Positions 16,946-49,539 are shown, counted from the first letter of the stretch. The stretch is 64,000 bases of DNA from an uncultured Actinomycetes bacterium (GCA_963757545.1 CAVWSA010000025.1:6898-70897); one strand, 5' to 3'. The notes: a model not told the origin generated them from the letters alone. Numbers and translations: made by a program.

Positions 16946-17306
16946 ATGAACCGTGAACGCCTCAAGGGGCACCTCGATCTGCTGCTGCTGGCCGTGCTCG
17001 CGGCCGGGCCAGGCGCATGGCTACGCGGTGATCTCGGCCCTGCGCCAGCGCAGCGAGGGCACTTTCGACCTGCCGGAAGGCACCGTGTACCCGGCGCTGC
17101 ACCGGCTGGAGGACGCCGGGCTGCTCAGCAGCAGCTGGGCCGACGCGGAAGGCCGCCGCCGCCGGGTGTACGCGCTGACCACCCAGGGCGCCGCCGCGCT
17201 GACCACCGAGGAGAGTGAGTGGCGGCGGTTCGCGCGTGCGGTTCAGGCGGTGACCAGCGGCCCCGGCCTGGCCGGCGGCCCGATCGTGGCTGGGGGGATG
17301 GCGTGA
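16946..17306 (+). pseudogene. PadR-family transcriptional regulator, one frame change near 17012
   Basis: The N-terminus MNRERLKGHLDLLLLAVLAAGP is in frame 16946. The rest (HGYAVISALRQRSEGTFDLPEGTVYPALHRLEDAGLLSSSW) is in frame 16953. The length is 3n+1. This could be a sequencing error. Confidence 0.75.
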
Positions 17307-18109
17307 GCGACAGGGAAATGAACGGCCGGGACGATGCGGTCGAGGAGTACCTGGACGAGCTGTACACCAAGCTGCGCGGCTCACCCCGGCAGGGACGGCG
17401 GCTGCTGGCCGAGGCCGAGGACCACCTGCGCCAGGGCGTGGACGAGGGGCTGGCCGGCGGGCTCACCCTGCCGGAGGCGCAACAGCATGCCGTGTCCAGT
17501 TTCGGCTCGGTGCGGGCCGTGGTCCGGGCGCACGACAGCCGGCTGCGCCGGGTGCCCGGTACGGCGGTCCTGGTCGACCTGATCATGTCCGGCTGGAAGC
17601 TGGGCTCGATCGGGCTACTCGCGGTCGGCGCCAGCGGCCTGGTCGTGGCGGCCATGAACGTGCTGTTCGGCCGGCCGTTCGTGGCGGCGGTGACCCCCGG
17701 CATCCGGCTGCCCGCCGCGTCCTGCCGGTACTGGCTGCACATCTGGCCCGGCGCGCACAGCTGCGCCCAGGCGTACATGCTGGAGAGCAGCAGCGACGCG
17801 GTCTCGCTGCGGCTCGGCGCCGGCCTGCTCGGCCTGCTCCTGCTGGGCGGCTACTACCTGGCCCGGCGCCGGGGCTGGTCGCCGGGTGTGCTGCCGGACG
17901 CGTTCACCCCGACCATCGCGGTGACGGTGTTCGGCATGGCCGGCCTCGGCCTGGCCTGGCTGGCCGCGATGAACGGCGGCGGCCTGGTCGCGGTGCGCGG
18001 GATCACCGGGCCCGGCTGGTATCTCAGCGGCGCCATCGTCGCGCTGGCCCTGGCGGCCGGCTACGGCCTGCAGCTGCAGCGCACGCTGCTCCGGCACGCC
18101 CGCCGCTGA
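17303..18109 (+). CDS. PadR-associated membrane protein (N-terminal cytoplasmic helical domain plus ~5 TM helices)
   Basis: GTGA overlap with the PadR stop. VEEYLDELYTKLRGSPRQGRRLLAEAEDHLRQGVDE resembles the DUF1700/HAAS-type prefix. TM segments follow. Confidence 0.7.
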   Translation: MSDREMNGRDDAVEEYLDELYTKLRGSPRQGRRLLAEAEDHLRQGVDEGLAGGLTLPEAQQHAVSSFGSVRAVVRAHDSRLRRVPGTAVLVDLIMSGWKLGSIGLLAVGASGLVVAAMNVLFGRPFVAAVTPGIRLPAASCRYWLHIWPGAHSCAQAYMLESSSDAVSLRLGAGLLGLLLLGGYYLARRRGWSPGVLPDAFTPTIAVTVFGMAGLGLAWLAAMNGGGLVAVRGITGPGWYLSGAIVALALAAGYGLQLQRTLLRHARR

Positions 18110-18152
18110 CCGCCTGCCGCCCGCCGCTGACCGGACAAGAGCCGGCCGCCTG

Positions 18153-19509: not shown

Positions 19510-20248
19510 CGGGCACCGTCCTGCGCCTCGAACGGGGTCGCGCCGGTGCCGCGCAGCACGATGTCCCAGGTGTAGGCGAGCGCCCAGTCCGGCTCGGTCA
19601 GGTCGATGCTGAACTGGGAGATGAGCCGCTGCCCGGGCCTTCGGGTCGGGGATCGAGTTGAAGATCGGGTCGTACGGGAACAGCGGGTCGTCCGGGAAGT
19701 ACATCTGGGTCACCAGGCGCTGGGTGAACGCCCGGCCGAACATGGAGAAGTGGATGTGCGCCGGCCGCCAGGCGTTGTAGTGGTTGCCCCACGGATAGGA
19801 ACCCGGCTTGATCGTGATGAACCGGTACCGGCCCTCCGAGTCGGTCACGCACCGGCCGACCCCGGAGAAGTTCGGGTCCAGCGGCGCCGGGTGCTGGTCC
19901 ACCTTGTGGTGGTAGCGGCCCGCCGCGTTGGCCTGCCACACCTCCAGCAGCGTGTCCGGGATCGGCCGCCCGTCGCTGTCCAGCACCCGGCCGGTCACGA
20001 TGATCCGCTCGCCGAGCGGCTCACCGGCGTGCTGCCTGGTCAGGTCGGCGTCGGCCGCGGTGACCCGGTCCGGGCCGAGCAGCGGGCCGGTGATCTCGGT
20101 CAGCCGCTGCGGAAGCAGCACCAGCGGCTGGTGCGGTGCGCGCAGCGCGGTGGACCGGTAGCCCGGGGAATCCAGCGGCGGGTGCACCCCGTCCCCCGCC
20201 CGCGGGTAGGACGGCAGACTGGAGATCGGCCGGCGGGTGGGTGGTCAT
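19506..20248 (-). pseudogene. pcaH: protocatechuate 3,4-dioxygenase beta subunit, two +1 frame changes (about 20200 and 19632)
   Basis: MTTHPPADLQSAVLPAGG / VHPPLDSPGYRSTALRAPHQPLV...RPAHIHFSMFG...IFNSIPDPKAR / QRLISQFSIDLTEPDWALAYTWDIVLRGTGATPFEAQDGAR lie in three frames. The length is 3n+2. Both extra bases fall in G runs. Confidence 0.8.
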
Positions 20249-20262
20249 CAGGGTGCTCTCCC

Positions 20263-21070
20263 TCACACGCTCGTACTGTTTGCCTGAAGCTGGCGCAAGG
20301 CGGCGAGTTCCGCGGCGGTCGGCGGCGCAAGCATCTGCCAGGGAATCAGACACCGCGAGTTCCCAGCCCGTCCGGGCCCGGACGTCCGGCACCGTGACCC
20401 CGGGGTAGATCCCGGTCAGGGTCAGCTCGCAGCTGGCCGGGTCCGGCTCGAGGATGCCGAGGTCGGTGATGACCTTGCGGGGGCCCGCCCCGGTCAGGCC
20501 GCGGCGCTCCCGGTAGCCGGGCCCGTCGCCGAAGCCGACCGAGGTGACGAAGTCCACCCGGTCCACGAAGGACCGGCGGCTCTGCCGGACCACCACGATC
20601 ACTTCCCGGCAGGACGCGGCGATCTCCGGTGCCCCGCCCGCGCCGGGCAGCCGCACCTTCGGGTCCGCGTAGGACGCGCCGATGACGGTGGTGTTGATGT
20701 TGCCGAACCGGTCGATCTGCGCGGCACCCAGGAAGCCGATGCCGATCCGGCCGGGCTGCAGCCAGTAGTTGAAGATCTCCGGGACGCTGACCACCGCGTC
20801 CGCGGTCTCGGCCAGGATCCCGTCGCCGATGGACAGCGGCAGCCGGCCCGGCTTGGCCCCGATGGTGCCCGACTCATAGATCAGCACCAGGCCCGGCGCG
20901 TGCGTGGCGCGGGCCAGGTTGGCCGCGGCGCTGGGCAGGCCGATGCCGACGAAGCAGGTCATGCCGTCGGTCAGCGCCCGGGCCGCGCACGCGGTCATCA
21001 TCTCGTCCGCGGTGAACGGGGACCGGTCCGCCGCGCTGGCCGGTGCCTCCCCGCGCCCGGTGGCGGTCAC
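20263..21070 (-). pseudogene. pcaJ: CoA-transferase subunit B (probable 3-oxoadipate:succinyl-CoA transferase by context), one frame change near 20338
   Basis: FVGIGLPSAAANLARATHAPGLVLIYESGTIGAKP...AAQIDRFGNINTTVIG. The C-terminus QMLAPPTAAELAALRQLQANSTSV is in the +1 frame. The length is 3n+1. Confidence 0.75.
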
Positions 21071-21936
21071 GCGTCACGCCCCGTCTCGGCGGGCGCAGCA
21101 CCGGCCAGCGAGCCCGAGGTGGCCAGCACCTCGTCGGCCAGCCACTGGCTGAACCGGTCCCGGTCCCGGCTGATCTCATCCCAGGCCTGGTAGTAGTCGT
21201 TGTCCCGGGCGGTGAAGCCGAGCGCGTACGAGGGGTGCGACCCGCCGGGAACTTCCGCCACGTAGTCCACCACCCAGGTGGGCAGCACGATCGCCCCCGG
21301 CTGCGGGGCAAGCTGGTCCACGATCTCCTCGACCGTCACGACCGAACGCCGGGCGCTGAGCACGGCTTCCTTCTGCACCCCGGTGATCCCCCAGAGCTGC
21401 ACGTTGCCGGCCCGGTCGGCGCGCTGCGCGTGGATGACCGCCACGTCCGGGTTGAGCGCGGCCACCGCGGTCAGCCGCTCGCCGGTGAACGGGCAGGTGA
21501 TGGGGCGGATGGCGGGCTGGCCGTCCAGGCCAGGCAGGCCCTCCAGGCCGGTTCCGCTGTACCCGCGCAAGATGGCGAACGGCATCCCGGACGCACCCGC
21601 CACGTACCGGTTGGCCATGCCCGCGTGGCTGTGCTCCTCCAGCTGCAGCGGCCCGGGCCAGCTGTTCTCCACCGCGTCGCGGAACCGGTGCAGCGAGCCG
21701 ACGCCGGGGTTGCCGCCCCAGGAGAAGATCAGCCGGCTCGCGCAGCCAGCCCCGATGAGCTGGTCATAGATCAGGTCCGGGGTCATCCTGACCAGGGTCA
21801 GGTCGCGCCGCCGCTGCCGGATCACCTCGTGCCCGGCGGCGAACGGGATGAGGTGGGTGAATCCCTCCATGGCCACCTGGTCGCCGTCGTGTACCGCGCG
21901 GGCGATGGCCTCAGCCAGTGAAACGATCTCCGCCAT
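21067..21936 (-). CDS. pcaI: CoA-transferase subunit A (glutaconate-CoA-transferase-like type; probable 3-oxoadipate CoA-transferase by context)
   Basis: MAEIVSLAEAIARAVHDGDQVAMEGFTHLIPFAAGHEVIRQ...IHAQRADRAGNVQLWG. 4-nt overlap with subunit B. Confidence 0.8.
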   Translation of the reverse strand: MAEIVSLAEAIARAVHDGDQVAMEGFTHLIPFAAGHEVIRQRRRDLTLVRMTPDLIYDQLIGAGCASRLIFSWGGNPGVGSLHRFRDAVENSWPGPLQLEEHSHAGMANRYVAGASGMPFAILRGYSGTGLEGLPGLDGQPAIRPITCPFTGERLTAVAALNPDVAVIHAQRADRAGNVQLWGITGVQKEAVLSARRSVVTVEEIVDQLAPQPGAIVLPTWVVDYVAEVPGGSHPSYALGFTARDNDYYQAWDEISRDRDRFSQWLADEVLATSGSLAGAAPAETGRDA

Positions 21937-22056
21937 ATCCTCCTGCCCCGGACCGCGTATCCCCGGACACCATAATGGCCACGTGGTCGCGATAAGTACA
22001 GCCGTTCGTCATACGGACACCGCAGTCCGGCCCCGGCCGGCCCCGATCGGCCCGGC

Positions 22057-22434: not shown

Positions 22435-23831
22435 GGCCGGCCATTCTGCTCGGTGCGCGCGTGCGCGGCCAGCGCGGCGGTCACGAACTCGCCCGCCGCG
22501 CCCAGGTAACCGGCCGGGTCGAGGGCCTGCTCGACCTGCCCGGGCGTGATCCCGGCCGCGGCCAGCGGCCTGCTTCCGGCCCGCCCAGCAGGCCGTCGCG
22601 CAGCGACTGGCCGGCCGCCGCGGCCCGCGCGCTGGCCTGGGCGACCAGGTCGTGCGCCCCGGCCCGGCCGAGGGCCGGGGCGAGCAGCGCCGCGACGTGC
22701 TCGGCCAGCGGGAAGCCACCCGCGGCGTCCAGGTTGGCCCGCATCCGGGCCGGGTCGGCGCGCAGCCCGGTCAGCATGTCCACCGCCCAGGACGCGGCCG
22801 ACCCGGTGAGCCGGAGCAGGTCGCTCAGCGGCGCCCACTCCGCGTGCCACGCCCCCGCCGCACGCTGGTGCTCCTGCTCGGCCGAACTGGCCAGGGTGGC
22901 CAGCAGCCCGGGCACCTGCTTGGTGCAGCCGAGCACCGCGATGGCGGCCACCGGGTTCTGCTTGTGCGGCATGGCCGACGAGCCACCCCGGCCGTCCCCG
23001 CCGCGCTCGTGGACCTCGGCCACCTCGGACTGGGCCAGCAGGGTCACGTCCCGGGCGATCTTGCCGAGCACGCCGGTGACACCGGCGCACGCCGCGCCGA
23101 TCTCGATGATCCGCAGCCGGTCGGTGTGCCAGGGCATCGTGGGCACGGCCAGGCCGAGTTCGGCGGCCAGCCGGGCAGCCACCTCCGGCCCGGCGCCGCC
23201 CAGCGCGGCCAGCGTGCCCGCCGCCCCGCCGAACTGCACCGCGAGCCCGGCTGGTGGCCACCCGGGCCAGCGCACCGCGCGCCTCGTCCAGGCCGGTCAG
23301 CCAGCCCGCCGCGACCAGCCCGAAGGTGACCGGTACCGCCTGCTGCAGCAGGGTGCGGCCGATCATCAGCGTGTCCCGGTGCGCGGCGGCCAGGCGGGCC
23401 GCGGCGGCGGCCGCGGCGGCCAGGTCGGCGGCCACCGCGGCCAGTGCCTGCCGGGCCAGCAGCATGGCCGCGGTGTCGAGGATGTCCTGGCTGGTCGCGC
23501 CCTTGTGCACGGCGGCCGCGGCGTCCGGCGGCAGCCGCCGGCCCAGTTCCCGGGCCAGCGCGGGCACCGGGTTGCCGGTGAGCGCTGCCTGCTCGCCCAG
23601 CCGGGCCGGGTCGAACGCGCCGGCCCGGGCCGCCTCGGTCACCGCCGCGCCCGCGCCCGGGGCGGCCAGCCCGGCCGCTTCCAGGGCCCGGGCCAGCCCG
23701 GCCTCGGTATCCAGCATGGCCTGCAGCCAGGCCCGGTCCGAGGTGTCCACCTGGCCGCGGCTGAACACGCCGTCGAAAAGCCCGCCCGGAGTCTGCACCG
23801 CCCCACGATAGCCCGGCGGATTCGTCATCAC
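22431..23831 (-). pseudogene. pcaB: 3-carboxy-cis,cis-muconate cycloisomerase with a compensating pair of frame changes (+1 near 23249, -1 near 22573)
   Basis: The N-terminal part (HKGATSQDILDTA) and the C-terminal part (LAAAGITPGQVEQALDPAGYLGAAGEFV) are in the frame of ORF 22431..23831. The central ~680 nt (LAVQFGGAAGTLAAL...GSSAMPHKQNPV...) are in the frame of ORF 22481..23275. Confidence 0.8.
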
Positions 23832-23892
23832 CCGGCCAGGAAATCACCTCAGCCATGCAACGCTACGTAGTCATCTGGTTCTCATAAGTGAT

Positions 23893-24450
23893 GTGACCGG
23901 GGAGGTAGCGATCCTAGACACGACCGAGACGAGCCAGGCCGGGACGTCCAGGCAGCAGGAGTTCGGCCAGTTCATGACCGCACGCTGGCCGGGCCTGGTC
24001 CGGCTGGCCTATGGCCTGACCGGCGACCGGTGGCTGGCCGAGGACGTCGCGCAGGCCGCGCTGGCCAGCGCGTACGCGGCCTGGTGGCGGGTCCGCCGGG
24101 CCGACGATCCGGACGCCTACGTGCGCCGCATCCTGATCAACACCAGCCACCGGCGGTTCCGGCGGCACCGGGTCGCCGAGCAGGCGCACCAGCCGGCGGA
24201 ACTCCCGGACGCCGCGGTAGCCGACCCGGCCGAGCTGATCGGCCAGCGCAGCGTGCTGCTGGCCGCGGTGCGCGAGCTGCCCGCCCGGCAGCGCGCGATC
24301 GTGCTGCTCCGGTACTGGGACGACCTGAGCGACGCGCAGGTGGCGGCCATCCTCGGCTGCTCGCCGGGCACGGTGCGCAGCCAGGCGTCCCGGGCCCTGG
24401 CCAAGCTGCGCGGCAGCGCCGCGCTGGCCGACCAAGGAGGAAGTCAGTGA
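23893..24450 (+). CDS. ECF (SigE-type) RNA polymerase sigma factor
   Basis: Region 2 is LAEDVAQAALASAY. Region 4 is LPARQRAIVLLRYWDDLSDAQVAAILGCSPGTVRSQASRALAKLR. Confidence 0.85.
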   Translation: MTGEVAILDTTETSQAGTSRQQEFGQFMTARWPGLVRLAYGLTGDRWLAEDVAQAALASAYAAWWRVRRADDPDAYVRRILINTSHRRFRRHRVAEQAHQPAELPDAAVADPAELIGQRSVLLAAVRELPARQRAIVLLRYWDDLSDAQVAAILGCSPGTVRSQASRALAKLRGSAALADQGGSQ

Positions 24451-25684
24451 CCAGTCCCGACGAGCAGGTACTCCGCCAGCGGCTGCACCACGAGCTGGCC
24501 GCGCTGCCCGCCCCGGCCGCCCCGGTGGGCGCGGCCATCCGGCGCGGCACCATGCTGCGCGGCCGGCGCTGGGTGGCCGCGGCGTCGGGGCTGGCCGCGG
24601 TGGCCGCCGTGGCCGTGTCCGTCCCGCTGCTGTCCGGCCGGGCCCAGCCCGCGCGCGGCTGGCCCGCGACGCCCAGGTCAGCCGGGCCAGGCAGGCCACC
24701 GCGGGCCAGCACCGGCCCGCGCCGGTGCTGACCGGGACCGCATTCGCCGCGGGCACGGCAGCAGGCCGGCCCTGGCAGCTGTCGGTGCGCAACATCGCGG
24801 ATCCCGGCGCCCGCTGCCTACCCACCATCATGCTCAACGCCACCGACGGGTATCTGCCGTCGCCCGGTGCCGGGGTTGCGGGCGGTATCGCCAGCCTGGC
24901 CTTCCTGACCAACGTGCCCGGCCAGCCCGCTACGGGTTACGCCGCGCTGCGTGTCTCGCCGGCCGTCACCCGGCTCACCGCCGGGCTGCGGGACGGCCGC
25001 ACCCTGGTGCTGCATCCGGTGACCATCGAGGCGTGCGGGCAGCGGCTGCCGCTGGCCGGGTTCAGCTACCCGCGGTCCGGGGTGGCCACGATCACCGCGT
25101 TCGCCGGAACCCAGGTGCTGGCCCGGGTCACCCCGCCGGCCAGCCTGTTCAGCCAGCCGGCCGCCCCGGCGGGCGGCTACGCCGCAGCGGGCACGCCGGG
25201 CTCGGCCGGATCCACGCTGCGCCTGGTGCCCGGGGTCTGGCAGCAGCTGTGGCGCACGCCGCGCCCGGTGGCGGCCGGGACGGTGGCGTCCGGGCAGCTG
25301 GGCGGCACCCGGTGGCGGATCTCCGTCCAGCTCGGCGCGGCCGGTGACTGCTTCCTCGGCGCCACGTTCGGCGGGCAGGTGGCCACTCAGGCCACCGACT
25401 GCGTGCCGATCGCGGTCCCGCCACGAACCGTCACGCTGCAGCGGTTCCCGATCCAGCAGCGCACCGGGCTGACCGGCTACGCCGGGCTGGCCAGCCCGCA
25501 GACCGCGTACCTGGTCGCCAGGCTGTCCGGTGGCGGCTCGCTGCGGGTCCAGCCGGCCCAGGTCGGCGGGCGGCGCTACTTCGCGCTGGCGTTGCCGGCC
25601 AGCCGGACGCTGACCCAGGTCACCGGATATGACTGGGCCGGGCGGGCGTTGCGTATGGTGCGGTTTCCCATCTCCGCCAGCTGA
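24447..25684 (+). pseudogene. putative single-pass anti-sigma / sigma-associated membrane protein with a large extracytoplasmic domain; probable frame change near 24650 (alternatively two genes)
   Basis: GTGA overlap with the sigma gene. The N-terminus VTSPDEQVLRQRLHHELAALP plus the TM helix WVAAASGLAAVAAVAVSVPLL is in frame 24447. The ~320-aa remainder (track ORF 24725..25684) is in another frame and has no signal of its own. The length is 3n+2. Confidence 0.5.
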
Positions 25685-25734
25685 GCGATGGGCGGGCTGG
25701 TCACGCCGCCGGACGGGGGCCTATCGTCTCCTGT

Positions 25735-27094
25735 ATGACCGTGCAATCATCGCTTTCCGGCGGCCCTGGCCTGGCTCAGGTGCGCCGCCTCGTCACCGAG
25801 ATCCCCGGGCCCTGCTCGCGCGAGCTGCTGGCCCGCCGCGAGGCCAGTGTGGCCCGCGGGGTCAGCCACGTCCTGCCGGTGTTCATCACCGCGGCGGGCG
25901 GTGGCGTGCTCATCGACGTGGACGGCAACTCGCTGATCGACTTCGGGTCCGGCATCGCCGTGACGTCGGTGGGCAACAGCGCGCCCCGGGTGGTGGCCGG
26001 CGTGCAGGAGCAGGTCGCGCGGTTCACCCACACCTGCTTCATGGTCACGCCGTACGAGGGCTACGTGGCCGTGTGCGAGGAGCTGGCCCGGCGCACCCCC
26101 GGTGACCACGACAAGCGGTCCGCGCTGGTCAACTCGGGCGCGGAGGCGGTGGAGAACGCGGTCAAGATCGCCCGGCACGCCACCGGGCGCCCGGCCATCG
26201 TGGCGTTCGACCACGCCTACCACGGCCGGACCAACCTGACCATGGCGCTGACCGCCAAGAACATGCCGTACAAGGACAAGATGGGGCCGTTCGCCGGGGA
26301 GGTCTACCGGATGCCGATGGCCTACCCGTTCCGCTGGCCGGGTGGCCCGGAGGCGTGCGCGGCGAACGCGCTGGATGTGATCACCGGGCTGATCCACACC
26401 CAGGTCGGCGAGGACAACGTGGCCGCGGTGCTCATCGAGCCGATCCAGGGCGAGGGCGGTTTCGTGGTACCGCCGGACGGGTTCCTGACCGGGCTGGCCG
26501 CGTTCTGCCGGGAGAACGGCATCGCTGCTGATCGCCGACGAGATCCAGAGCGGGTTCTGCCGGACCGGTGACTGGTTCGCCTGCGACCGCGAGGGGGTCG
26601 TGCCCGACCTGGTCACCACGGCCAAGGGCATCGCCGACGGGCTGCCGCTGGCCGCGGTGACCGGGCGGACCGAGATCATGGATTCGGTGCACGTGGGCGG
26701 GCTCGGCGGCACCTACGGCGGCAACCCGGTGGCCTGCGCGGCCGCGCTCGGCGCGATCGAGACCATGGCGGCCGAGGATCTCGCCGGGCGGGCCCGGCGG
26801 ATCGGCGACATCATGCTGCCCCGGCTGCACAAGCTGGCCGAGGCCAACCCGGTCATCGGGGATGTCCGCGGCCGCGGCGCGATGATCGCCATCGAACTGG
26901 TCCGGCCCGGCACGCTGGAGCCCGCGCCGGCCGCGGCGGCCCAGGTGGCCAAGGCCTGCCACAGTGCTGGCCTGGTCGTGCTCACCTGCGGCACGTTCGG
27001 CAACGTGCTGCGCTTCCTGCCGCCGCTGGTGATCGGCGAGCAGCTGCTCGAAGAGGGCCTGGGCATCCTGGAGGACGCCTTCGGCACGCTCTGA
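25735..27094 (+). pseudogene. gabT: 4-aminobutyrate aminotransferase, one +1 frame change near 26524
   Basis: ORF 25735..26571 ends ...FCRENGI. ORF 26600..27094 and its upstream frame continue LLIADEIQSGFCRTGDWFACDREGVVPDLVTTAKGIADGLPL (PLP lysine). The length is 3n+1. Confidence 0.85.
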
Positions 27095-27243: not shown

Positions 27244-28075
27244 GTGCGCATCCAGTCCCCCGCGGAGTCCCCCGTCCCGTCCGCTCCCGCCCGGCCTGGT
27301 TAGCCCTCATTGCGGCTAGCGCCTTGCCCTGCCGCTCGCCCTGGCCCCCGCGGCCAGCGCGAGCTCGGTCAACTACGTGGCGCTCGGTGACTCCTACTCC
27401 TCCGGGGTGGGCGCGGGCAGCTACACCAGCTCCAGCGGGTCCTGCGACCGGAGCACGGACGCCTACTCGCAGCTGTGGGCCAACGCCAACGACCCGGCTT
27501 CGTATGTCTCGGTGGCCTGCTCGGGCGCGACGACCTCGACGGTGATCAGCAGCCAGCTGTCCGCGCTCAGCACCGCGACGACGCTGGTGTCGATCACCAT
27601 CGGCGGTAACGACATCGGGTTCAGCAGCGTGATGGAGACCTGCGTGCTGGAAGGGTGGGACTGCGTGAGCGCGGTGGACAACGCGGAAAGCGAGGCCGAG
27701 AACCAGCTGCCCGGCGAGCTGGACTCGGTGCTGGCCGACATCAAGGCCGACGCGCCGAACGCCCGGGTCGTGGTGCTCGACTATCCCGAGCTCTACGACC
27801 TGTCCCGGTCGTCCGGCTGCATCGGGCTGAGCACCAGCAACCGCACCGCGCTGAACCAGGGCGCGCAGATCCTGGACAGCGAGATCCAGGCGGCGGCGGG
27901 CCGCTACGGCGACGTGTTCGCCGACGCGGCGAATCAGTTCGCCGGGCACGAGATCTGTGACTCGTCGAGCTGGCTGCACTCGGTCAATGTCCTCGATATC
28001 AGCGAGTCCTACCATCCGACCGCGGCCGGCCAGGCTGACGGGTACTACCCGGTGTTCAGCGCGGCGGCCGGCTGA
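27244..28075 (+). pseudogene. secreted SGNH/GDSL hydrolase, two frame changes within the signal-peptide region (about 27262 and 27325)
   Basis: GAGGAGG precedes GTG 27244 (VRIQSP...). The signal pieces RSRPAWLALIAASAL / ALPLALAPAASA are in different frames. The mature part has GDSYSSG, ITIGGNDIG and SYHPT blocks (track ORF 27377..28075). Confidence 0.75.
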
Positions 28076-28138
28076 GCTGATGCCGGGGCCCGGGTCCGCG
28101 CGGGGGCTGGCGGACCCGGGCCGGGGTAGGACGGACTC

Positions 28139-28961
28139 ATGCCTGTTCTCGTCGGCACATCCGGCTGGCAGTACCGCGACTGGCGCGGCTTGCTCTACCC
28201 CGAGGGGGTGCCGCAGCGCCGCTGGCTGGAGCACTACGCCAGCCAGTACGCGACGGTGGAGAACAACAACAGTTTCTACCGGCTGCCCAGCCGGGACACG
28301 TTCGCGGCCTGGCGGGACCGGACCCCGGACGGCTTCGTGATGGCGGTCAAGGCGAGCCGCTACCTCACCCATATCCGGCGGCTGCGCGACCCGGCCGAGC
28401 CGGTGGCCCGGCTGCTCGGCGCGGCGGCCGGGCTGGGCCCGCGGCTCGGCCCGGTGCTGCTGCAGCTGCCGCCGAACCTGGCCGCCGATCCGCCGCTGCT
28501 GGCCGCGTGCCTGGCCGAGTTCCGGCCGGCGGGCGAGGCCGCGGGCACCGGCCCGGTCCGGGTGGCGGTGGAACTGCGGCACGAGTCCTGGTGGGCCGGC
28601 GACGCAGGCGAACGAGGTGCAGCGGGTGCTGGCCGGGCACGACGCGGCGCTGTGCTGGGCGGACCGGCTGGGCCGCCCGGCCAGCCCGCTGTGGCGCACG
28701 GCCGGCTGGGGTTACCTGCGGCTGCACGAGGGCGCGGCCCAGCCGTGGCCGCGGTACGGCCGGGTGGCGCTGCGGTCCTGGGTGGAGCGGATCCAGGACG
28801 GCTGGCCTTCCGCGGCGGACGTGTACGTGTACTTCAACAACGACCCGGGCGGCGCGGCCGTCCGCGACTCGGTCACGTTCGCCGAGCTGGCCCGCCGGGC
28901 CGGGCTGACCGTCACCCGGACGCCGCCGGCCGGCCAGCTGTCTCAGCCGGCCGGCGGCTGA
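28139..28961 (+). pseudogene. DUF72 family protein, one frame change near 28600
   Basis: MPVLVGTSGWQYRDWRGLLYP...VELRHESWW is in frame 28139. EVQRVLAGHDAALCWADR...YVYFNNDPGGAAVRD is in frame 28617. The length is 3n+1. Confidence 0.8.
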
Positions 28962-33369: not shown

Positions 33370-34666
33370 CTGCCGGCCTCCTCGCTCGACCGCGCGCAGC
33401 GCGTCGGCCAGGATGCCCAGGCCCTCCTTGGCGTCGGCCTCGGACAGGTTCATTGGCGGGGCCATCCGCAGCGCGTGCCCGTACAGCCCGCCCTTGCCGA
33501 TCAGCAGGCCACGCTCCCGCGTCTCGGCCAGCATCCGGGTGGCCAGCGCCGGGCTGGGCGCCCCGGTGGCCGGGTTCGACCATGTCGATGGCGAACATCA
33601 GGCCCTTGCCGCGCACCTGGCCGACGGCCGGCAGCGCCGCCGCGGCCTCGCGCAGCCCGCCGATGATCATGCCGCCCAGCTGGGCGGCGTTGTGCTGCAG
33701 GTCATGGTCGAGCACGTAATCGAGGGTGGCGTTGGCGGCCGCGGTAGACAGCGGGTTGCCACCGAACGTGGAGATGCCGTTGCCGGGCAGCCCGTCCATT
33801 AGCGCGCCGCGGGCGATCACCCCGCCGATGGCGAAGCCGTTGCCGAGTCCCTTGGCGAACGTGATGATGTCCGGGGTCACGCCGTGCGCGCCGATGCCCC
33901 AGAAGTGCTCGCCGGTGCGGCCCCACCCGGTCTGCACCTCGTCCGAGATGAGCAGCGCGCCGCGCTCCCGGAGCACCGCCGCGTACTCGCCGAGCAGCCC
34001 GTCCGGCGGCATGGTGAACCCGCCGACGCCCTGCACCGGCTCGGCGATGAGGCAGGCCACGTCGCCGGCGGTCGCGGTGCTGAGCACGTGCCGCAGGTCC
34101 TGCACACAGGCCGCGGTGTACTGCGCGTCGTCCAGCCCGGCGAAGGCGGGCAGCTGCCGGTCGGTGCCGTGCAGGTAGTGCACGTTGAACGGGGCCAGCT
34201 GGGAGGGCTTCCACGCGCCGTTGCCGGTGATGGCGACCGCGCCGAACGAGCGGCCGTGGTAGCTGTTGCGCAGCGCCAGCACCTGGTTGGACCGGCGGGC
34301 CGCGGTGGCCAGCATCAGCGCCGTCTCGTTGGCCTCGGTGCCCGAATTGGTGAAGAACACCTTGGCGTTCTCGATGCCGGACAGCCGGGCCAGCTTCTCG
34401 GCCAGCTCCACCTGGTGCCGGATCAGGTACAGCGTCGAGGTGTGCACGATGCCGGTGTCCAGCTGGTCCTGCACCGCCTGGCGTACCTCAGGCACGTCGT
34501 AGCCGAGCATGTTGGTCAGGATCCCGCAGAAGAAGTCCAGGTAGCTGCGGCCGGAGGAGTCGGTGACCCGGCTGCCGCTGCCGCTGGTCAGCTCGAGCGG
34601 CTCGTCGTAGTAGAGGCCGACCCAGTTAGGGATGACGCGGCGGTGCCGCTCAAGGAGTTCGGACAT
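33366..34666 (-). pseudogene. class-III (omega-type) aminotransferase, frame change near 33570; 3' end inferred
   Basis: MSELLERHRRVIPNWVGLYYDEPLELTSGSGSRV...NSGTEANE...ISDEVQTGWGRTGEHFWG...ITFAKGLGNG (PLP Lys). The C-terminus MLAETRERGLLIGKGGLYGHALRMAPPMNLSEADAKEGLGILADALRAV is in another frame. The end is placed at the TGA of an ATGA overlap with mmsA, which needs one more correction near 33385. Confidence 0.7.
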
Positions 34667-36465: not shown

Positions 36466-37966
36466 TCAGCCTTCCGGGTCGATGCCGTCGAACGCTGGCA
36501 CCCGCACCGTGCGATGGCCTGGCCTGCCGCCCAGGATCACCTGGCGCAGCGACACGTCGTTGCTGGTGTCCGTCTCGTACAGGACATGCTCCGGGTTGGC
36601 CCGGATCTCGATGTAGTACGTGCCGTTCGGCAGGTGGGTGATGTTGAACGACTGGCCGGCCACCGACTGGAAGTAGGTGTCAGCCCAGCCCAGCGGCAGC
36701 TCCTCCTGCACCCACAGCGCGGTCGGTGAGCCGCACTGGCCGCCGAAGCCGAGGAACGACGGCTGCCACACCGCGCCGGGCAGCAGCAGGTCCACCGGGT
36801 CGGTCGGCGCGATGCAGAAGCCCACCTTGCGGCTCGGCACGACCAGCTGCTGAGCCGAATTGAGCAAGGCGTACTGCGCGAACTGCTGGAAGTGCCAGTG
36901 GTTGTGGCCGTGCTTGGAGTCGAACCCCATGGTCCCGGCCCGGGCCCGGCCGATGACGTGCCCGCCCTGCCAGAAGTACTGGTACGCCTTCATGGTCGGC
37001 GAGCCGTTCGACCGGAACCCCTCGACATCGAGTGGCCCGTTACCGCCGATCGACACCGTGGCGCCAAAGTCCAGCTGACTCGGAGGCGGGGTGCTTCTTG
37101 GTCGCCCGGATGTTATCGACCGAGATCCCCCAGGACGGCAGCGGGACCAGGTCCGGTAGCGAACTGGCCGGCGGGCTGGCCAGCGTGCGCACCGCCGGCA
37201 AGGTGGGCAGCGCCCGGCTCCGCGGGATGGCCGGGCGGCCGCGGGCGCCGAGCGGCCCGCAGCACCCGGACGCCTTCACCACGGTGACCTTCACCGTGGC
37301 GGTGGCGTCGGCCGGGGTGATGTGCAGCAGCCGGGTGTACGGCGCCAGGATCGTCTCGGTCACCTTGTATGTGCCCAGGTTGAGCCGGTAGCCGACCGAG
37401 TTCTCTTCCAGCGGGTCCACCGCCCAGCCCTTGGCCACGCCCCAGACCAGCGACTTCGGGAACGGGTCGGCCACGCATTCCTGCGGGTAGGGCGAGGTGG
37501 CCGGGCTGTCCGGGGAGGCGCGCTCCGGGTCATAGCTGTCCGGGCAGAAGCCGACTTTCGAGCTGTCCAGCACCTTCCCCCGGGTCGTCGCCACCGTGAT
37601 CTGGAGGAAACGGCGCAGCTGGGACGGCACCCGCCCGATAAGCGTGGCCGGGAACGGCACCTGCTGCACCCCGCCGCCGGGCAGGTGGATGATCTGGGTC
37701 AGGGTGAGCGGCGAGGTGTAGCTCGCCCGCTGCACGTCGAACTCCAAGGCGGAGCCGAGCGACGCGGTCCAGATGCCCGGATCCATGAACACCACGTGAC
37801 CAAACCTGGGCAGCTTGACGCTGTTCTGCGCCGGGATCAGCTTCAGCTGCGGCCCGGCTGGGGTACTGGCCGCCGCGCCCGGCAGCCCGGGCGCGGTGAC
37901 CGACACGGCTGTTAATCCGGCCACCGCCACGGCCGCGGCGCGCAGCCGCAGTCTTGCTCTCGTCAT
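36466..37966 (-). pseudogene. secreted lysyl-oxidase-like (LOX catalytic domain) copper amine oxidase homologue, one frame change near 37076
   Basis: Signal MTRARLRLRAAAVAVAGLTAVSVTAPGLPGAAAS. The C-terminal domain has KHGHNHWHF (His-rich Cu site), RKVGFCIAPTD, GWADTYF and FNITHLPNGTYYIEIRANPEHVLYETDTSNDV. These parallel human LOX HSCHQHYH, HKASFCLEDT, CYDTY and [31 protein letters not shown], recalled from memory. Confidence 0.7.
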
Positions 37967-38078: not shown

Positions 38079-41000
38079 TCAGCCAGGCCCGGTTTTGCGC
38101 AGCGATGGCCGCGTGGTGCGGCTCAGCTCGGTACCCGGTTCCGGCGGCGCTGGCGGCGGTCCGGCTGGCGGCGCACCGGCGGACGGCTCGGCTGCCGGCG
38201 GCGGCGCGGCTGGCGGCTCCGCGGCCGCGACCGCCCGCTGGTAGGCGTCGCGCAGCCGGGCCACCTCGGCCTGCGGGTTCGTGGAACCAGTTGGTGGACC
38301 ACAGCCGGTGGAAACTCCAGCCGAGCCGCTGCAGGTGCTCGCCGCGCAGCCGGTCCCGGTCGCGGACGCTGCCGCGAGGCGTGGTAGGACGCGCCGTCGG
38401 TCTCGATGGCCAGCACCATCCGGCTGACGTCGTCCGGGTGGGTGGCGGCGAAGTCGACCCGGTAGCCGCCGACCCCGTACTGCGGCACCACGGTGATCCC
38501 GCACGCGGCCAGCCGGTCCCGCACGTCGGCCTCGAAACGGGTTCAGCTCGGAGCGGCCCGACGCCTCGGCGCACGTGCCGCCCGGACCCGGCGTACTCCA
38601 GGTAGTCGGCCAGCAGCCGGGCACCGGCCTTGGTCACCCGGTCCGGGTCCACATCGTGCTGGAGAACGAGCTGACCAGGGTGAGCCGGTGCTTGGCCCGG
38701 GTCGCGGCCACGTTCAGCCGGCGCTCGCCGCCGTCGCGCAGCAGCGGGCCCCACTGGTACCGCATCCGGCCGTCCGGGTGCTTGCCGTACCCGATGGACA
38801 GGATGATCGCGTCCCGCTCGTCGCCCTGCACGCGCTCCAGGTTCTTGACGAAGAACGGCTCGGCCGTGTCCTCGGCGAAGAAGGCCTCCAGGTCGGGGTG
38901 CGCGGCCAGCGCGTCGCGCAGCGCCGCGTCGATCCGCTCCGCGTGCTTGATGCCGAGCGCGATCACGCCGAGCGACTGCCGCGGCTGGGTCCGGGCGTGC
39001 TCCAGGATCAGCTCGACCACCTTGTCCACCTCGGCCGTGACCGACACCTCCTGGCCCCGCTCCGGGCCCTGCGCCGACCACCACGTGGCGCAGGCAGTCG
39101 TCGCGCAGCACGCCGGGGAACGTGGTCAGCGCGCCGCCGTAGATGTGCGCGTTGGAGAACGCCACCAGCCGCTCGTCCCGGCTGCGGTAGTGCCAGGTCA
39201 GCGGCGCGGTCGGGAGCAGCGGGCGGAGCGCGTCGAGCACCGACTCGAAGCCCGCGCCGAACGAGACCAGGCTCTCGTCATCGTCCGGCTCGGCCGCCGT
39301 CGCCGTCATCGCCGAACTGGCGGAAGAAGTTGGTCGGCGGCAGCTGCCGGTCGTCCCCGGCGACCACGATCTGGTGCCCGCGCATGACGGACGGGATCGC
39401 GTCGGCCGGGACGATCTGGCTGGCCTCGTCGAAGATGACCACGTCGAACAGCCGGGTCGGCGGGCAGCACCTGGCTGACCATCAGCGGTGACATGGCCCA
39501 GCACGGCTTGAGCGCGAACAGCACGTCGCTGGTCTGGTCGAGCAGCCGCCGCAGCGGCAGATGGCCGGCGGCGCAGCGCCGCCTGCTTGCGGATGACCCG
39601 GGCCTGCAGCGGGTGCCGGTCCTGGGCGTCGCGCAGCCGGTCCGCCCAGGCGCGGCGGACCCGGCCGGCGTTGGCCGCCAGGTGCGCTATGTCCCGGACC
39701 CGGAAGTCGCTGGCGATCTCGTCCAGCGCGCCGCCGCGGTGCGCGGCATAGCCGCGGATCGCGGACCCGCATCTGATCCAGGATCGAGCGAGTACCACGC
39801 GTATCGAACGCGGCGGCGGCCAGCTCCGGGCCCGGCCTCGCGGCGGGCCAGCTCGTCCAGCAGCGGGCCGAGGCCCAGCTCGGCGAAGCCCGACGCGAGC
39901 TGGTACAGCCGGGGCAGCTGCCACGCGGTGTCCTGGTCCGCGGCCAGCTCGGCCAGCTGGACCGCGGGATCCTCGCCGGCAGCGAGACGTAACCGCGCAG
40001 CAGGCCCAGCTGCGCGTCGCAGTGCGCGCCGATCTCGGTCAGCTCCGGATAGCTGGCCGGCAGCCGGGGCAGGCCCTGCGTCGGTGCTCAGCTCGCGCCA
40101 CTGGCCCGAGCTCGGCCGGCGGCCGGCGCGGAGCTGCTGGTGCAGCTCCTCGCGGGGCGGCTCGGCCGTCGCCGATGGCCAGCGCGCGGGCCTGCTTGCG
40201 CAGCGCCCGGCGATCCAGGAAGCTCAGCCCGGCCCCGTCGCCCGTCGCGGCGGCCAGCCGGTCCGGGCCGGCCGCGTACACGGCTGGCCCGAGGTGACCG
40301 CAGCGGTCTGCGCGACCGCCGCGTACAGCCGCAGCACTGGCCACCGCGTCCGGGTAGCCGCGCGGCGGCCGCAGCCCAGGTCTCCGCCGCCGCGCGGGCC
40401 ACCCGGTGCAGCAGCGCGGGCAGCTCATGCGAGCTGAGCCGGGCCACGATGTCGCACGCCTGGCGGGCCTGGTCCGGGGTGCGCAGCGCGGCGCCGTACC
40501 ACGGCGTGCTGCCCGGGCGCAGGGTGAAGCCACCCAGGTGGGCGAACTCGCGCAGCTCGTCCCGGATCTGGTCGGCCGCCTCCCGGGTGATCTGCTCCGG
40601 CCCGGCCAGCCGGACCGGGGTGCGCGCTTCGTCCGGCCCGCCGAGCAGCGCGGCCTGCACCTCGAACGGGGTCAGCCCCCACGGCTTGTGCACGTCGTGC
40701 AGCGCGGTCGCGTGCTGGCTGAGCCGCTGCTGCCGGTCCACCAGGCGGCGGTGCAGGTCGGTCAGGTCCGGCGCCGGCGGTGCGCTGCGCTTCATCCAGG
40801 GTGTCGCCCAGGTCACGGGCGATGCGCAGCCGGTCCCGGGTGCCTTCGTGGATGTCCAGCACCATGCCGCCCAGGCCGACTCCCTTGAGCCGGGACAGCA
40901 CCGCGTCGATGGCGGCCCGTTTCTCCGCGACGAACAGCACCTTGCGGCCCCGGGCGACCAGGGTGGCGATCAGGTTGGCGATGGTCTGGCTCTTGCCCGG

Positions 41001-42026
41001 TGCCGGGCGGCCCGTGGATGACCAGGCTGCGCCCGGCCAGCACCGCGCCGATCGCGCTGCGCTGCGAGGAATCGGCGTCCAGCACCGAGTAGTCCTCTTC
41101 GGGGGAATCCAGCAGCGGCCCGCTGGCCTCGCCGATGGCCGGGTCGGCCGCGCCCAGGGATTCCTGCGCCTCCGGGTCGCCGGCGATGGCCGCCACCACG
41201 TCACTGTCGTCCAGTAGCTCGGCCGCGGCTCTGCAGGTCCCGCACCATGGGCAGCTTGGCGTAGGTGAACGTGCCGATCACCTGCGCGGTCGGTGATCGC
41301 GAAGCCGGGGACCTCGGCCGCCTCGGCGGCCCGGCCAGCAGCGGGCCGACCCGGCTGGCCGCGCTGCTCGGCCAGTTCCTCGGTGGCCGCGCCGAACACG
41401 CTGGCCAGCTTGTAGCAGCAGGACCGGGTTGACCTCATAGCTCGTCGTCCAGCACCAGCTCGAAGTCGTCGTGCCGGGCCCGGGTCGGCGTGATGGTCAG
41501 GCCGCGCAGCAGCACCGGCGCGGCCGGCTCGAGGAACAGCTCGTCCCAGCGCGCGATGCCGATGGCCAGGTAGCCGGCCCGGATGCCGCGCTCCTCCAGC
41601 AGTTCCCGGGCCTTGCGGTGGATGACCTGGACCCGGCGGATCGCGTCGGCCCGTGCGTCGACGTCGTGGAACAGCCGGGTCAGCCGGGTCGAGCCGGTGC
41701 GCAGGAACCGGTCCAGCGCGGCCGGGTCGGCGGCGGCCAGGTCCAGCGTGCCGGCCCGGCGGTCTTTGTAGTAGAGCAGCGTGTTGCGGCCGCCCAGGTC
41801 GGTCAGCGCGGCGACCCAGCGGGCCTGCGCCGCCGCGATGAGCTCGGCGCGGCGCCGGTCGGCCGGGTCACCGCCATCCGCCGGGTCACCGCCATCCGCC
41901 GGTCGCGCCGTCCGCCGGCTCGCGCCATCCGCCTCGGCGCCATCCGCCTCGCGCCATCCGCCGCTCAGCATCAGCCAGCCGCTCGCCGTCGTCCGCCTGC
42001 TCGCTGTCGTCCCGCTGCTCAGCCAT
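38079..42026 (-). pseudogene. DUF4011 + superfamily-1 helicase (AAA_11/AAA_12) + DUF559/Vsr-like endonuclease protein (~1300 aa), heavily frameshifted
   Basis: Recognisable blocks, in order:
- LTDLGGRNTLLYYKDRRAGTLDL (DUF4011)
- [41 protein letters not shown] (Walker A)
- [12 protein letters not shown], then HQIVVAGDDRQLPPT
- WHYRSRDERLVAFSN
- VQGDERDAIILS and [16 protein letters not shown]
- VDFAATHPDDVSRMVLAIETDGASYH...DRDRLRGEHLQRLGWSFHRLWSTNW (DUF559-like)
The blocks are spread over at least ten frame switches, and an in-frame TGA lies at 41435-41437. The start is ATG 42026, or ATG 41971. Confidence 0.75.
41865..41966 (-). repeat. coding tandem repeats in the helicase N-terminus: (ADGAE)x3 and (PADGGD)x2
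   Basis: On the plus strand, GGGTCACCGCCATCCGCC occurs x2 (41865-41900). GCGCCATCCGCCTC-type 15-nt units occur x3 (41917-41966). Confidence 0.5.
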
Positions 42027-43394: not shown

Positions 43395-46215
43395 ATGACG
43401 ACGAAGACCCGTAACCCCAGCCTCCGCAGCCGGTTAGCGGCCCGCCCCGGGCCCCGGCTGGCCACCCGGTCCCGGCACCGGGCAGCGGCCCGCGCCCGGC
43501 GGCCGGCCGCGCTGCTCGCCGCGGGCGGCCTGGCCGCGGCGCTGCTCAGCGCGGTGGCCGCGGCGCCGGCCCAAGCCGCGACGCTGCCCGACACCCCGGG
43601 CTACAGCCTGCCGCTCGCGCTCCAGGAGTCGCTGTACTTCTACGACGCGCAGAAGTCCGGGCCCGGCCCGGACCGACGGCGACCAGCCGCTGCCCTGGCG
43701 CGGCGACTCCGAGCCGTCGGACAGTTGCGTACCGCTGCAGCCAATGGCCAACCATGTGGGCACCAACATGTCGGCCGCGTTCATCGCGGCCAACAAGTCC
43801 GTGCTCGACCCGGGCAACACCGGCTGCGTGAACCTGTCCGGCGGCTTCCACGACGCCGGCGACCACGTGAAGTTCGGCCTGCCGCAGTCCTATGCCGCCG
43901 CCGTGCTGGGCTGGGGAATGTACGAGTTCCCGCAGGCCTACCAGGCCACCGGCACCTGGGCGCACGCCATGGACGAGATGAAGTGGTTCAGCGACTACTT
44001 CCTCCGGTCCACGTTCCTGAACTCGTCCGGCCAGGTGGTCGCGTTCGCCTACCAGGTCGGCGAGGGGGGGGTGGACCACGACTACTGGGGGCCGTCCGAG
44101 CTGCAGAGCGCGACCACCTACCCGCGGCCGGCCTACTTCGCGACCAGCCAGACACCGGCCGCCGACCAGACGGCCAGCGCGGCGGCCGCGCTGGCCGTCG
44201 AGGCGATCCTGACCGCCAGCAGCAACGCCAGCTACTCGGCCAAGTGCCTGCAGTACGCCGAGGCGCTGTACACGTTCGCCCGGGCCAACCCGGGCACCGG
44301 CTACTCCGGCGGCTTCTACCCGTCCAGCGGGTACGTCAGCGAAGAGGCCTGGGCGGCCGACTGGCTGTACCTGGCCACCGGGAACTTCAGCTACATCAAC
44401 GACATCATCGCGACCAACGCCAGCGGCGCGTTCACCGGCTATCTCAGCAACATCATCACCAGCCCGGGATCGACCTGGCAGAACACCTGGGTGATGAGCT
44501 GGGACTCGCGCTGGGGCGGGGTGTTCTCGGTGCTCGACCCGATCGTGCAGGGAAACGCGAACGTGCCCGCCGCGACCCAGGCCGACATCCACTACTTCGA
44601 CAAGTGGCAGGTGCAGTACTGGTCGCACGTACCGCACGACAGCAGCAACGACACCAACTTCATCGCCACCACGCCGGCCGGGTTCTCCTACCTGACCAGC
44701 TGGGGCTCGGCCCGGTACAACACCGCCGCCCAGCTGGAGGCGCTGGCCTACCGGAAGAACTTCCCCACCGACCCGGACAGCGTGCTGTTCAGCAACTGGG
44801 CCATGGGCCAGATGAACTACCTGATGGGCGACAACCCGGCAAGCTGGTCCTACATCGTGGGCTTCGGCTCGAACGTGCCCGGGGTGGGATCCGAGGTCGG
44901 CGGCAGCGCGACCGCGGCGACGCATCCGCATCATGGTGACGCGCAGGGCTCGCTGACCAACAGCCAGAGCGACCCGGCGACCGACAAGCACATCCTGTGG
45001 GGCGCGCTGGTCGGCGGGCCCAGCTCGGCCGACCAGCCGGACGACGTGACCACCGACTTCGTGCTGAACGAGGTAGCGGTGGACTACAACGCGGCCTTCG
45101 TCGGCGCGCTGGCCGGGCTGTACCAGTACTACGGGCAGAGCCAGCCGATGACGAATTTCACCCCGCCCACCGAGCCGCAGGGCAACTGCGCCGAGTACCA
45201 GCAGACCTGCTCGGCCCCGTACTACGCCACGGCCACCCTGAACCAGGACAGCAACCAGGGCACCCAGCTCACCGTGACCATCAACAACATGGCCGACGAG
45301 CCGCCGCACCGGCAGTCCGGGATGAGCGCCCGGGTGTACTTCGACATCAGCTCGCTGCACGCGCAGGGCCAGGACATCAGCGACATCTCCACCCCGGTGT
45401 ACTACGACGCGGCCGACCAGATCGACGGCACGGCCACCTCGGTCAGCGCGCCGGTGCAGTGGGGGGACGCGAACAGCTGCGTCTACTACGTCACGGTCAA
45501 CTGGGGCAGTGACCAGATCGGGCTGCCGCCGTCCCGGGCCTTCGAGTTCGGCATCGACGCGGCGATCGGGCCGCAGTACAAGTTCTACTGGAACTCGGCC
45601 AGCTCCCCGTTCATGACCGGCCTGGCCGCGGGCACGTACGCGTCCACCCCGGACCCGTACATCCCGGTCTACATCAACGGGCAGCTCGCCTACGGGCAGA
45701 CGCCGTCGCTGACCGCGGACGAGGGCTGCGGTTCGTCCGGCAGCGGCGGTGGCGGCACCCCGTCGGTGACCGCCGAATACGAGGCGTCCAGCACCGCGGC
45801 CAGCACGTCGACCATCAGCAACCAGATCGAGCTGGTCAATGACGGCACCTCGGCCATCCCGCTGGCCGACCTCACGGTGCGGTACTGGTTCACCGAGGAC
45901 GGCACCGGCCCGCTCGACTACGTGTGTGAGTACGCGCCGGTCGGCTGCGCCAACATCACCGGCACGTACGCCGCGGTCAGCCCGGCGGTGACCGGCGCCG
46001 ATCACTACCTGCAGCTCAGTTTCGGCAGCGGGGCCGGATCGCTGGCGCCCGGCGCGAGTACCGGCGGCATCCAGAACGAGCTGTTCCAGAGCAGCTACGC
46101 CACGATGACGCAGACCAACGACTACTCGTTCAACGCGGCCGACACCAGCTTCACCGCCAACCCGGACATCACCGTGTACAACAACGGCACCCTCATCTAC
46201 GGCACCGAACCCTAA
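43395..46215 (+). pseudogene. GH9 endoglucanase with CBM3c-like and C-terminal CBM3 modules, one frame change near 43670
   Basis: The signal and start (MTTKTRNPSLRSRLAARP...AAPAQAATLPDTPGYSLPLALQESLYFYDAQKSG) are in frame 43395. The rest is in frame 43744: LSGGFHDAGDHVKFGLP, DHDYWGP, NEVAVDYNAAFVGALAG, then a CBM3c-like module, a Ser/Gly linker, and CBM3 (LADLTVRYWFTEDGTG...NDYSF...IYGTEP). The length is 3n+1. Confidence 0.85.
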
Positions 46216-48036: not shown

Positions 48037-48046
48037 CGCCCCTCCC

Positions 48047-49539
48047 CTACAGGCCCGGGTAACTCGGGAACGAGCAGGACGGCACGCTGCCGCTGCCGGT
48101 GAACGAGGTGACGGTCACGTCCGTGCCGGACGGGGTGATGTTGCTGTTGTACGTGCGGATGCTGGCGTACTCGGCGCTGGTGCTGGTCGCGTCGAGGCTG
48201 ACGTTCTCCAGGGTCAGCCCGAGCAGGTGGCTGGAGTTGTAGCCCTCCAGCACGGACTGGGCGCTGGACGCCGAACTGACCGCCTTCAGCCCGTCCACCA
48301 CGATGTTCTCGAAGTACGGCGTGGTCGAGCCGTTGCCGGATGAGTAGAACGGGTTGAACTCCAGCGCGTGCTTGACCCCGGTCAGGCAGTTGCTGTCGTA
48401 GGTCACCCCGTTGACCGTGCCGCCCTCGCTGGACGTGGTCTTGATCCGCAGCCCGTTGTTGTCGCTGCTCACGTTCCCGGCCGAGTCGGTCCCGCTGACC
48501 GTGTTGTTCTCGACCAGGATGTTGCTCACCCCGTACTGGGTCTGGCTGCCGATGGAGATCCCGTGCGTGCCGTAGAAGTGGCTGTTCTCGATGGTCATGT
48601 TGGACGCGGCGGCCGAGTTGGTCTTGATCGCGATGCCGTCGTCGCCGTCCTGGATGTAGGAGTCGTTCACGGTGACGTTGGACGCGCTGTCCGGGTCGAT
48701 GCCGTCGGTGTTCCGCGCCGTGGCCGGGGTCTTGATCCGCACCCCCCACACGGTGAGCCCGCTGCCGCCCTCGAAGTAGATGTGGAACAGCGGCGCGTTG
48801 ATCAGGTCCACGTCGTACACGGTGAAGTTGTTCACGTCGTGCGCCTCGATCAGCCGCGGGTTGTTCTGGTCGTCACCATCGGTCTTGGCCGTGTTGGACA
48901 GCGTCCACCAGCTTCCGCTGGTGCCCAGGATGTCCTGGTCACCCCGCCCGTTGATGGCGCCCTGGCTGCCGCTCGGGCTCTGCGTGCCCATGATGGCGGC
49001 GTTCGACCCGGTCACGTTGATGAACGGCTTGCAGCCGTTGCCGCTGGACGCCACGGTGCCGCAGGTGGCCTGGCCGGACACCTGATAGTTGGCCGGGTTG
49101 CGGGACGCGTACAGCGTGGCGCCCGCGTCGAACGAGCAGGGTCACGCTGGCGGGCAGCGACAGCGGGCCGGACAGGAAACTGTTGTCGCTGCCGCTGGGG
49201 GCCAGCACGACCGCCTCGCCGGTGCCGCTGCAACTGTTCAGCGCGGACTGGATCCGCGAGGTGTCCGGCGGCGCGGCCTCGGCGCTGCTGCTGAACTGCT
49301 CGTTGCTGGTGGCCAGGGTGGCGCTCAGCGTGGCGCAGGTGGCCGGGACGCTGGGCTGGGCCACCGCGCGGCTGTCCCCGGTGGCCAGGGCCAGGCTGGC
49401 CGCCGCGCGGCTGGCCAGGCCCGGCCGGGTGGCTGGCCGCCGCGGCCGCGGGCAGCGCGAAGCCTGCCACGGCAGCGATGAGAGCGCTAACAACTGTGCT
49501 GATGGCTAACTGGCGGGGACGGACGGGAGGGTGTTTCAC
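48047..49539 (-). pseudogene. GH28 endo-polygalacturonase (PehA-like), two frame changes (about 49435 and 49130)
   Basis: GTG 49539 gives the signal VKHPPVRPRQLAISTVVSALIAAVAGFALPAAAAA. Then come ATCATLSATLATSNEQF...SRIQSALNSCSG...FLSGPLSLPASVTLLV and the core in ORF 48047..49081 with NTDGIDP, GDDGIAIK, THGISIGS and RIKT. Confidence 0.8.

Follow-up and report, generated by a model that had tools for sequence, protein, structure and literature searches.

Within a 64,000-nt stretch of the draft genome of an uncultured actinomycete, the genes in one long block appear to be interrupted by frameshifts, which raises the question of whether the organism is losing these genes or whether the deposited sequence misrepresents them. 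The stretch (G000:C25:6898-70897) is hereafter called the window, and all event coordinates are counted within it. A first-pass annotation had assigned the breaks to a single block at 16946-49539 and had left both readings open. Our analyses indicate that the frame breaks are very probably consensus indel errors of the draft assembly and that the organism's own genes are intact. The combination of a codon-usage frame tracker with exact-protein look-ups of sister metagenome contigs allowed artefact and decay to be separated without access to the reads.

The source genome is a draft of 47 contigs and 6.66 Mb with 72% G+C, a completeness score of 79.8% and contamination of 3.95%. Its proteins have their named relatives in Streptosporangiaceae metagenome bins, and the closest DNA-level relatives of a gene in the flank are long-read metagenome bins of the 'MFD...bin' series. 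Long open reading frames (ORFs) are present in all six frames of such G+C-rich DNA. The true coding frame was therefore tracked by codon usage, with a Viterbi model for which long ORFs of the same genome served as the training set. A junction was called frameshift-like when abutting coding segments on the same strand lay in different frames and the upstream frame had no stop within 45 nt. Events were counted at base level with a frameshift-aware protein-to-DNA dynamic programme that aligned intact orthologues to the window. The genes of the block were aligned to proteins of G002, a member of the genus that is syntenic over window positions 1-56196 at ~90% identity. A helicase gene in the block was aligned to the intact 1,279-aa orthologue P0001; for this gene tblastn, which does not handle frameshifts, was uninformative, and the dynamic programme was used in its place. 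Exact-protein look-ups located three metagenome contigs in the ENA that encode identical proteins, and look-ups for 22060-22434, 18937-19509, 14350-15990 and 51624-52649 returned no match.

The breaks are strongly clustered within the window. The frame tracker placed 32 junctions in 16946-49539, two in 1-16945 and none after 49539. Under a uniform distribution of events over the window, the probability of at most two in the flanks would be 6e-8, which bears out the uneven distribution described in the first-pass annotation. Viterbi junctions and frameshift-aware alignments together give ~56 one-base frame breaks in ~16 genes of this error-rich stretch (46 extra bases and 10 missing bases; 28 events in the helicase and 28 outside it). 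Nearly all of the positions listed earlier were recovered within a few bases by the alignments. The alignments also agreed with the earlier description of PL4 and the body of the GH9 gene as clean and of a compensating pair in pcaB, which consists of a missing base at 22567 and an extra base at 23246-23248. Other parts of that description needed revision. The helicase does hold many breaks, but their number is 28 rather than about 10, and an in-frame TGA at 41435 that had been listed among the events outside homopolymers is, like the 'ATGA' junction around it, a by-product of an extra base at 41441. The flanks had been described as free of breaks. This is true of the right flank, where frameshift-aware alignment to G002 found no event in five genes up to 56.2 kb, but not of the left flank, where both the Viterbi model and the G002 alignment revealed a compensating indel pair at 352 and ~452-458 in a gene at 163..912 (minus strand). 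A few ambiguous spots at 4450/4491, 7933 and 9315 in the left flank lie in divergent or repeat segments.

Comparison with the sister contigs restored the reading frame at most of the breaks. The three contigs are 96-99.7% identical to the window and lack 38 of the 44 events that they cover. The first-pass annotation had proposed an independent assembly as the check between its two readings, and this result favours artefact over decay. ERZ25039458:contig_103464 matches window positions 36298-58038 at 98.98% identity, and 27 of the 32 events in its range are absent from it. ERZ25039467:contig_43551 matches 10082-15971 at 99.8% and 16557-30237 at 96.0%, and lacks the events at 17011, 19631, 20217, 20333, 22567, 23248, ~24499, 26524, 27323, 28604 and 30024. 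ERZ25039467:contig_60751 matches 48721-64000 at 99.73%; it lacks the extra bases at 49132 and 49417 and shows no coding indel in the right flank. The sister contigs also carry private breaks of their own, at places that are unbroken in the window. Contig_103464 has ILVD_EDD in three pieces, a truncated aldehyde dehydrogenase (Aldedh) and a fusion of UxaC with the adjacent gene, and contig_43551 has truncated calls for gabT (212 aa) and an abhydrolase (163 aa). Three assemblies thus each have their own set of one-base breaks in conserved genes, which is how consensus errors behave and not how mutations behave.

The densest part of the block is a gene for a DUF4011/SF1 helicase (AAA_11, AAA_12)/MTES_1575 endonuclease-like protein at 38082..41990 (minus strand). 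It holds 28 one-base events, 24 extra and four missing bases, and with 28 breaks in 3.8 kb it is among the five densest junction hot spots of the genome. Frameshift-aware alignment across all 28 breaks gives 93.4% identity to P0001, and even a rough read-through aligns over 97% of its length, at 88% identity, with intact proteins of 1,277-1,283 aa. Contig_103464 lacks 23 of the 28 events. The helicase region (window 38000-42900) lies within a ~4.4-kb segment that G002 does not have at the syntenic site, and intact orthologues with 88% identity are found in other metagenomes. We regard the gene as probably accessory and defence-like.

The block does not stand out from the rest of this genome. 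The detector found 3,956 frameshift-like junctions genome-wide, or 0.59 per kb, and every sizeable contig has patches of them; in 58.5 kb of syntenic G002 DNA it found only 6 (0.10 per kb). Once the helicase is set aside, the block has 15 junctions in 28.8 kb, and this density of 0.52 per kb is close to the genome mean. Counted in 5-kb bins, the junctions have a variance-to-mean ratio of 3.1, with 251 of 1,309 bins empty and a correlation between adjacent bins of rho 0.31. Junction-free gaps of at least 14 kb number 37, against 0.9 expected, and about 15 hot spots contain 13 or more junctions per 4 kb. The flanks of the block are two of these 37 unusually clean stretches in a generally error-rich genome. 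The earlier claim that breaks are confined to one block therefore holds inside the window but fails at the scale of the genome, with its ~3,956 such junctions. Nor are the breaks restricted to a dispensable region, as every large contig has both hot spots and clean gaps. The gene for rpoB (G000:C29:405286-408595) lies in two frames, split at ~C29:405853, dnaE (G000:C32:344567-347730) runs through three successive frames, and C47 carries a second dnaE-like copy that is likewise fragmented. Both rpoC and secA are intact. By direction, 2,807 of the junctions are insertion-like and 1,149 deletion-like.

Three candidate drivers of this patchiness were rejected. G+C content correlates weakly with junction density (Spearman 0.26), and proximity to contig ends hardly matters (3.28 junctions per 5-kb bin close to ends and 2.92 elsewhere). 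Mixed results were obtained for the proposal that hot spots consist of accessory DNA with reduced depth, which was dropped as a general rule. The helicase island and a hot spot on C31 are absent from G002, but the densest hot spot of all, on C16, is core DNA at 88% identity, and a hot spot on C30 is present in G002 although more divergent.

The first alternative to consensus error is genuine regional decay, in which the strain would have accumulated frameshifts in a 32-kb block no longer under selection. This would explain why the indels are present in the deposited sequence and private to it, and it would agree with a ratio of nonsynonymous to synonymous divergence (dN/dS, frame-corrected and relative to G002) that is slightly higher in the block than in the flanks (0.32 vs 0.20). 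Yet block genes that are free of frameshifts have equally high ratios (PL4, for example, 0.41), and pooled synonymous divergence (dS) to G002 after frame correction hardly differs between the block (0.203) and the flanks (0.202). Relaxed selection predicts dN/dS near 1, nonsense codons and a bias towards deletions, and none of these was found: the 8,442 frame-corrected codons of the block contain no in-frame stop. Following the frames gives full-length conserved proteins without stops in the helicase, in gabT and across those 8,442 codons, and the helicase is still 93% identical to its intact orthologue despite 28 breaks. Natural pseudogene decay in bacteria is deletion-biased, so the excess of insertions (46 to 10 in the block, 2,807 to 1,149 genome-wide) runs in the opposite direction. 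The same signal extends over the whole genome, including rpoB and dnaE, and the sister assemblies have private breaks in other genes. Reductive pseudogenisation of the Mycobacterium leprae type likewise leaves many genes interrupted by frameshifts; here, in contrast, essential genes are broken, nonsense codons are lacking, insertions predominate, dS is the same as in clean neighbours, codon usage has been kept in full, and the breaks are not shared with populations that are 96-99.7% identical. Regional decay is thus largely refuted already, and we consider it extremely improbable. Programmed ribosomal frameshifting or transcriptional slippage was also rejected, as each site lies in one continuous frame in the orthologues (G002, P0001 and the sister contigs) and the contexts of the breaks share no motif.

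Two further explanations concern the kind of error and the helicase. The first-pass annotation had read many of the events as single bases in G or C runs, the signature of classic sequencing error, and platform homopolymer error in the style of 454, Ion Torrent or old Nanopore could act as uniform random noise. Every event does involve a single base, and short G or C runs are lengthened in a few cases (38541, 43661 and 19634). However, most inserted bases extend no homopolymer. Among the 28 insertions that could be resolved to the base against near-identical contigs, seven extend an existing run and two extend a run of two or more; typical contexts are C[G]C and G[C]G, for example CC[G]CCC, GG[C]GGT and GGCC[A]GGC. 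Together with the strongly non-uniform distribution of events, this makes uniform homopolymer noise a highly unlikely source. There is a similarly small chance that the helicase hot spot is partly biological, either because dense local DNA modification perturbed base-calling or because a defence-like accessory gene carries real indel polymorphism in the soil population. The gene is error-dense in two independent assemblies, its region is absent from G002, and it shows real strain divergence, with 45 of 65 mismatches at third codon positions. Against this, its breaks sit at different positions in the two assemblies, the sister contig restores 23 of the 28, other hot spots are located in core DNA, and the frame-corrected gene has no stop codons.

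Several points weigh against consensus error as the source of the breaks. Considered by itself, the fact that an indel is missing from another strain's assembly is equally what a strain-specific mutation would produce. The sister contig resolved 23 of the 28 helicase events, and the check on twelve events at 30.5-34.8 kb comes solely from G002, which is 90% identical and was the one genome compared across 30.2-36.3 kb. The platform and origin of the genome are deduced from its relatives. The somewhat higher dN/dS of the block (0.32 vs 0.20) also counts here, although the frameshift-free genes in the block show the same. As for the two readings that the first-pass annotation had left open, the artefact is supported and decay is disfavoured by the 38 of 44 restored events; what is not supported is the picture of a special block with a homopolymer signature and with the flanks as the norm.

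If the breaks are consensus errors, their patchiness calls for an explanation, and indel-dense patches appear to sit where co-occurring strains diverge. Out of 147 mismatches between the window and contig_103464, 67 fall in the helicase and 40 in ILVD, which is the contig's own dirty patch. Third codon positions account for 45 of 65 mismatches in the helicase (38200-41990) and for 27 of 38 in ILVD (54530-56224), and this bias means that the mismatches reflect real strain divergence. In both genes allelic divergence is ~2%, within DNA that is otherwise 99.9% or more identical to contig_103464. At the left edge of the block, identity to contig_43551 falls from 99.8% to 96% and junctions are rearranged, the window lacking segments 5888-8404 and 8787-10173 of that contig. 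At the right edge, no such identity change or rearrangement was found relative to contig_60751. The coincidence of patches and divergence is a correlation from a few patches only. Judged by the alignments, the jump in identity between 10082-15971 (99.8%) and 16557-30237 (96.0%) indicates either lineage recombination or a chimeric contig.

A strain-variable locus at 15971-16557 coincides with this left edge. Contig_43551 has ~3.9 kb more there, encoding an AAA ATPase, DUF7779, a TIR_2 protein, DUF2442 and an intact XRE(DUF5753)-DUF397 pair, and the window keeps only fragments of the locus (16175-16556 at 98%). The difference reflects either a genuine deletion or an assembly path that switched between strains.

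The genome is most likely a low-coverage long-read metagenome bin that was polished without short reads, as suggested by its relatives and by the Flye-style names of the sister contigs. The errors are mostly spurious single extra bases in the deposited consensus, and in such a bin consensus quality would follow the local effective read depth. Where strains are near-identical, their depth would be pooled and the consensus clean; where they diverge, depth would be split and polishing confused, leaving indels. It has been reported that Nanopore-only metagenome bins below ~40x still need short-read polishing and that their consensus indels cause frameshifts (Sereika et al. 2022, PMC9262707). For the MFD long-read bins, metaFlye assembly was followed by one Medaka round, and their catalogue notes reduced coding density for lower-coverage bins (PMC12313526). 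This genome shares with the low-coverage Nanopore metagenome-assembled genomes (MAGs) of these studies the fragmentation of gene calls by single-base indels, a lowered completeness estimate, and a different error set in each independent assembly of the same population; its closest named relatives and sister contigs are also Flye-style metagenome contigs. It differs in that the literature stresses homopolymers, whereas the errors here are mostly non-homopolymer insertions, with platform and coverage deduced indirectly. There is also a likeness to the degradation of metagenome consensus by strain mixture (microdiversity), in that indel-dense patches overlie synonymous-biased divergence (the helicase in the window and ILVD on the sister contig) and the left block edge falls at an identity drop with rearranged junctions. 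The right edge, without any such change, does not fit this pattern, and the likeness comes from few patches and from sequence comparison.

Outside the helicase, the events are spread over the block as single bases. A PadR-family gene (16967..17291, plus strand) has an extra A at ~17011-17012 that is absent in G002 and contig_43551. In pcaH, encoding protocatechuate dioxygenase beta (19515..20278, minus strand), extra bases lie at ~19631 and ~20217-20230, and the gene is intact (246 aa) on contig_43551. The adjacent CoA-transferase gene (pcaI/J; 20275..21945, minus strand) has an extra base at ~20333-20338, judged against both G002 and contig_43551; a further event at 21113 is doubtful and is probably a real repeat-length difference. 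The pcaB gene for 3-carboxymuconate cycloisomerase (22443..23777, minus strand) carries the compensating pair described above, with the missing base at ~22566-22567. An anti-sigma factor gene (24432..25678, plus strand) lacks one base somewhere in 24499-24712. The gabT aminotransferase gene (25735..27085, plus strand) has an extra G at 26524, and its read-through protein is 97% identical to intact 452-aa proteins; the members listed for its 90% cluster include none from the same strain, the closest having 11 differences. Bases are missing at 27253-27265 and ~27322-27323 in an SGNH/GDSL hydrolase gene (27253..28072, plus strand), and a DUF72 gene (28142..28922, plus strand) has an extra G at 28604.

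The FtsX-type ABC permease gene (29177..31830, plus strand; 875 aa in G002) has seven events relative to G002, at 30024, 30571, 30614, 31257, 31285, 31463 and 31641, of which that at 30024 is also absent from contig_43551. In G002 the permease region (window 29020-31839) is found on another contig and on the opposite strand (C17:81478-84275), and by this comparison the gene would have moved or been inserted relative to G002. Three neighbouring genes were compared with G002 only: an mmsA-type aldehyde dehydrogenase gene (31871..33367, minus strand) with extra bases at 32837, 33318 and 33328, a class-III aminotransferase gene (33375..34636, minus strand) with extra bases at 33387 and 33574, and a PucR regulator gene (34779..36424, plus strand) with one base missing near 34810. 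On contig_103464, a lysyl-oxidase-like gene (LOX; 36478..37951, minus strand) with an extra C at ~37078-37081 is intact (499 aa), as is the GH9 cellulase gene (43458..46209, plus strand; 939 aa), which has an extra G at ~43659-43661. The GH28 polygalacturonase gene (48050..49482, minus strand) has an extra A at ~49130-49132 and another at ~49416-49417. Both bases are absent from two independent contigs, and the gene is called at full length (496 aa) on contig_103464. Between GH9 and PL4 (window 46214/46301), G002 has ~5.5 kb of extra DNA.

The window also contains a short intergenic G+C-rich repeat with a core of ~110 nt, at 9855-10031, 51551-51650, 52721-52901 and 54390-54504. Two of the copies have 105 and 138 BLAST matches in the genome, and dozens of matches occur in G002 at 81-96% identity. 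Rfam gave no family at the gathering threshold anywhere in the window. The repeat looks like a repetitive extragenic palindromic (REP) or miniature inverted-repeat transposable element (MITE) type of element.

For the biology of this actinomycete, the frame breaks hold no novelty; they are a data-quality warning. Other findings from the window that depend on 'broken' genes should be read as possible assembly error. Annotation of the genome will under-call and fragment genes, including the pca genes, gabT/mmsA and the genes for pectin and cellulose degradation, and claims of pseudogenes or 'gene loss' made from it would be wrong.

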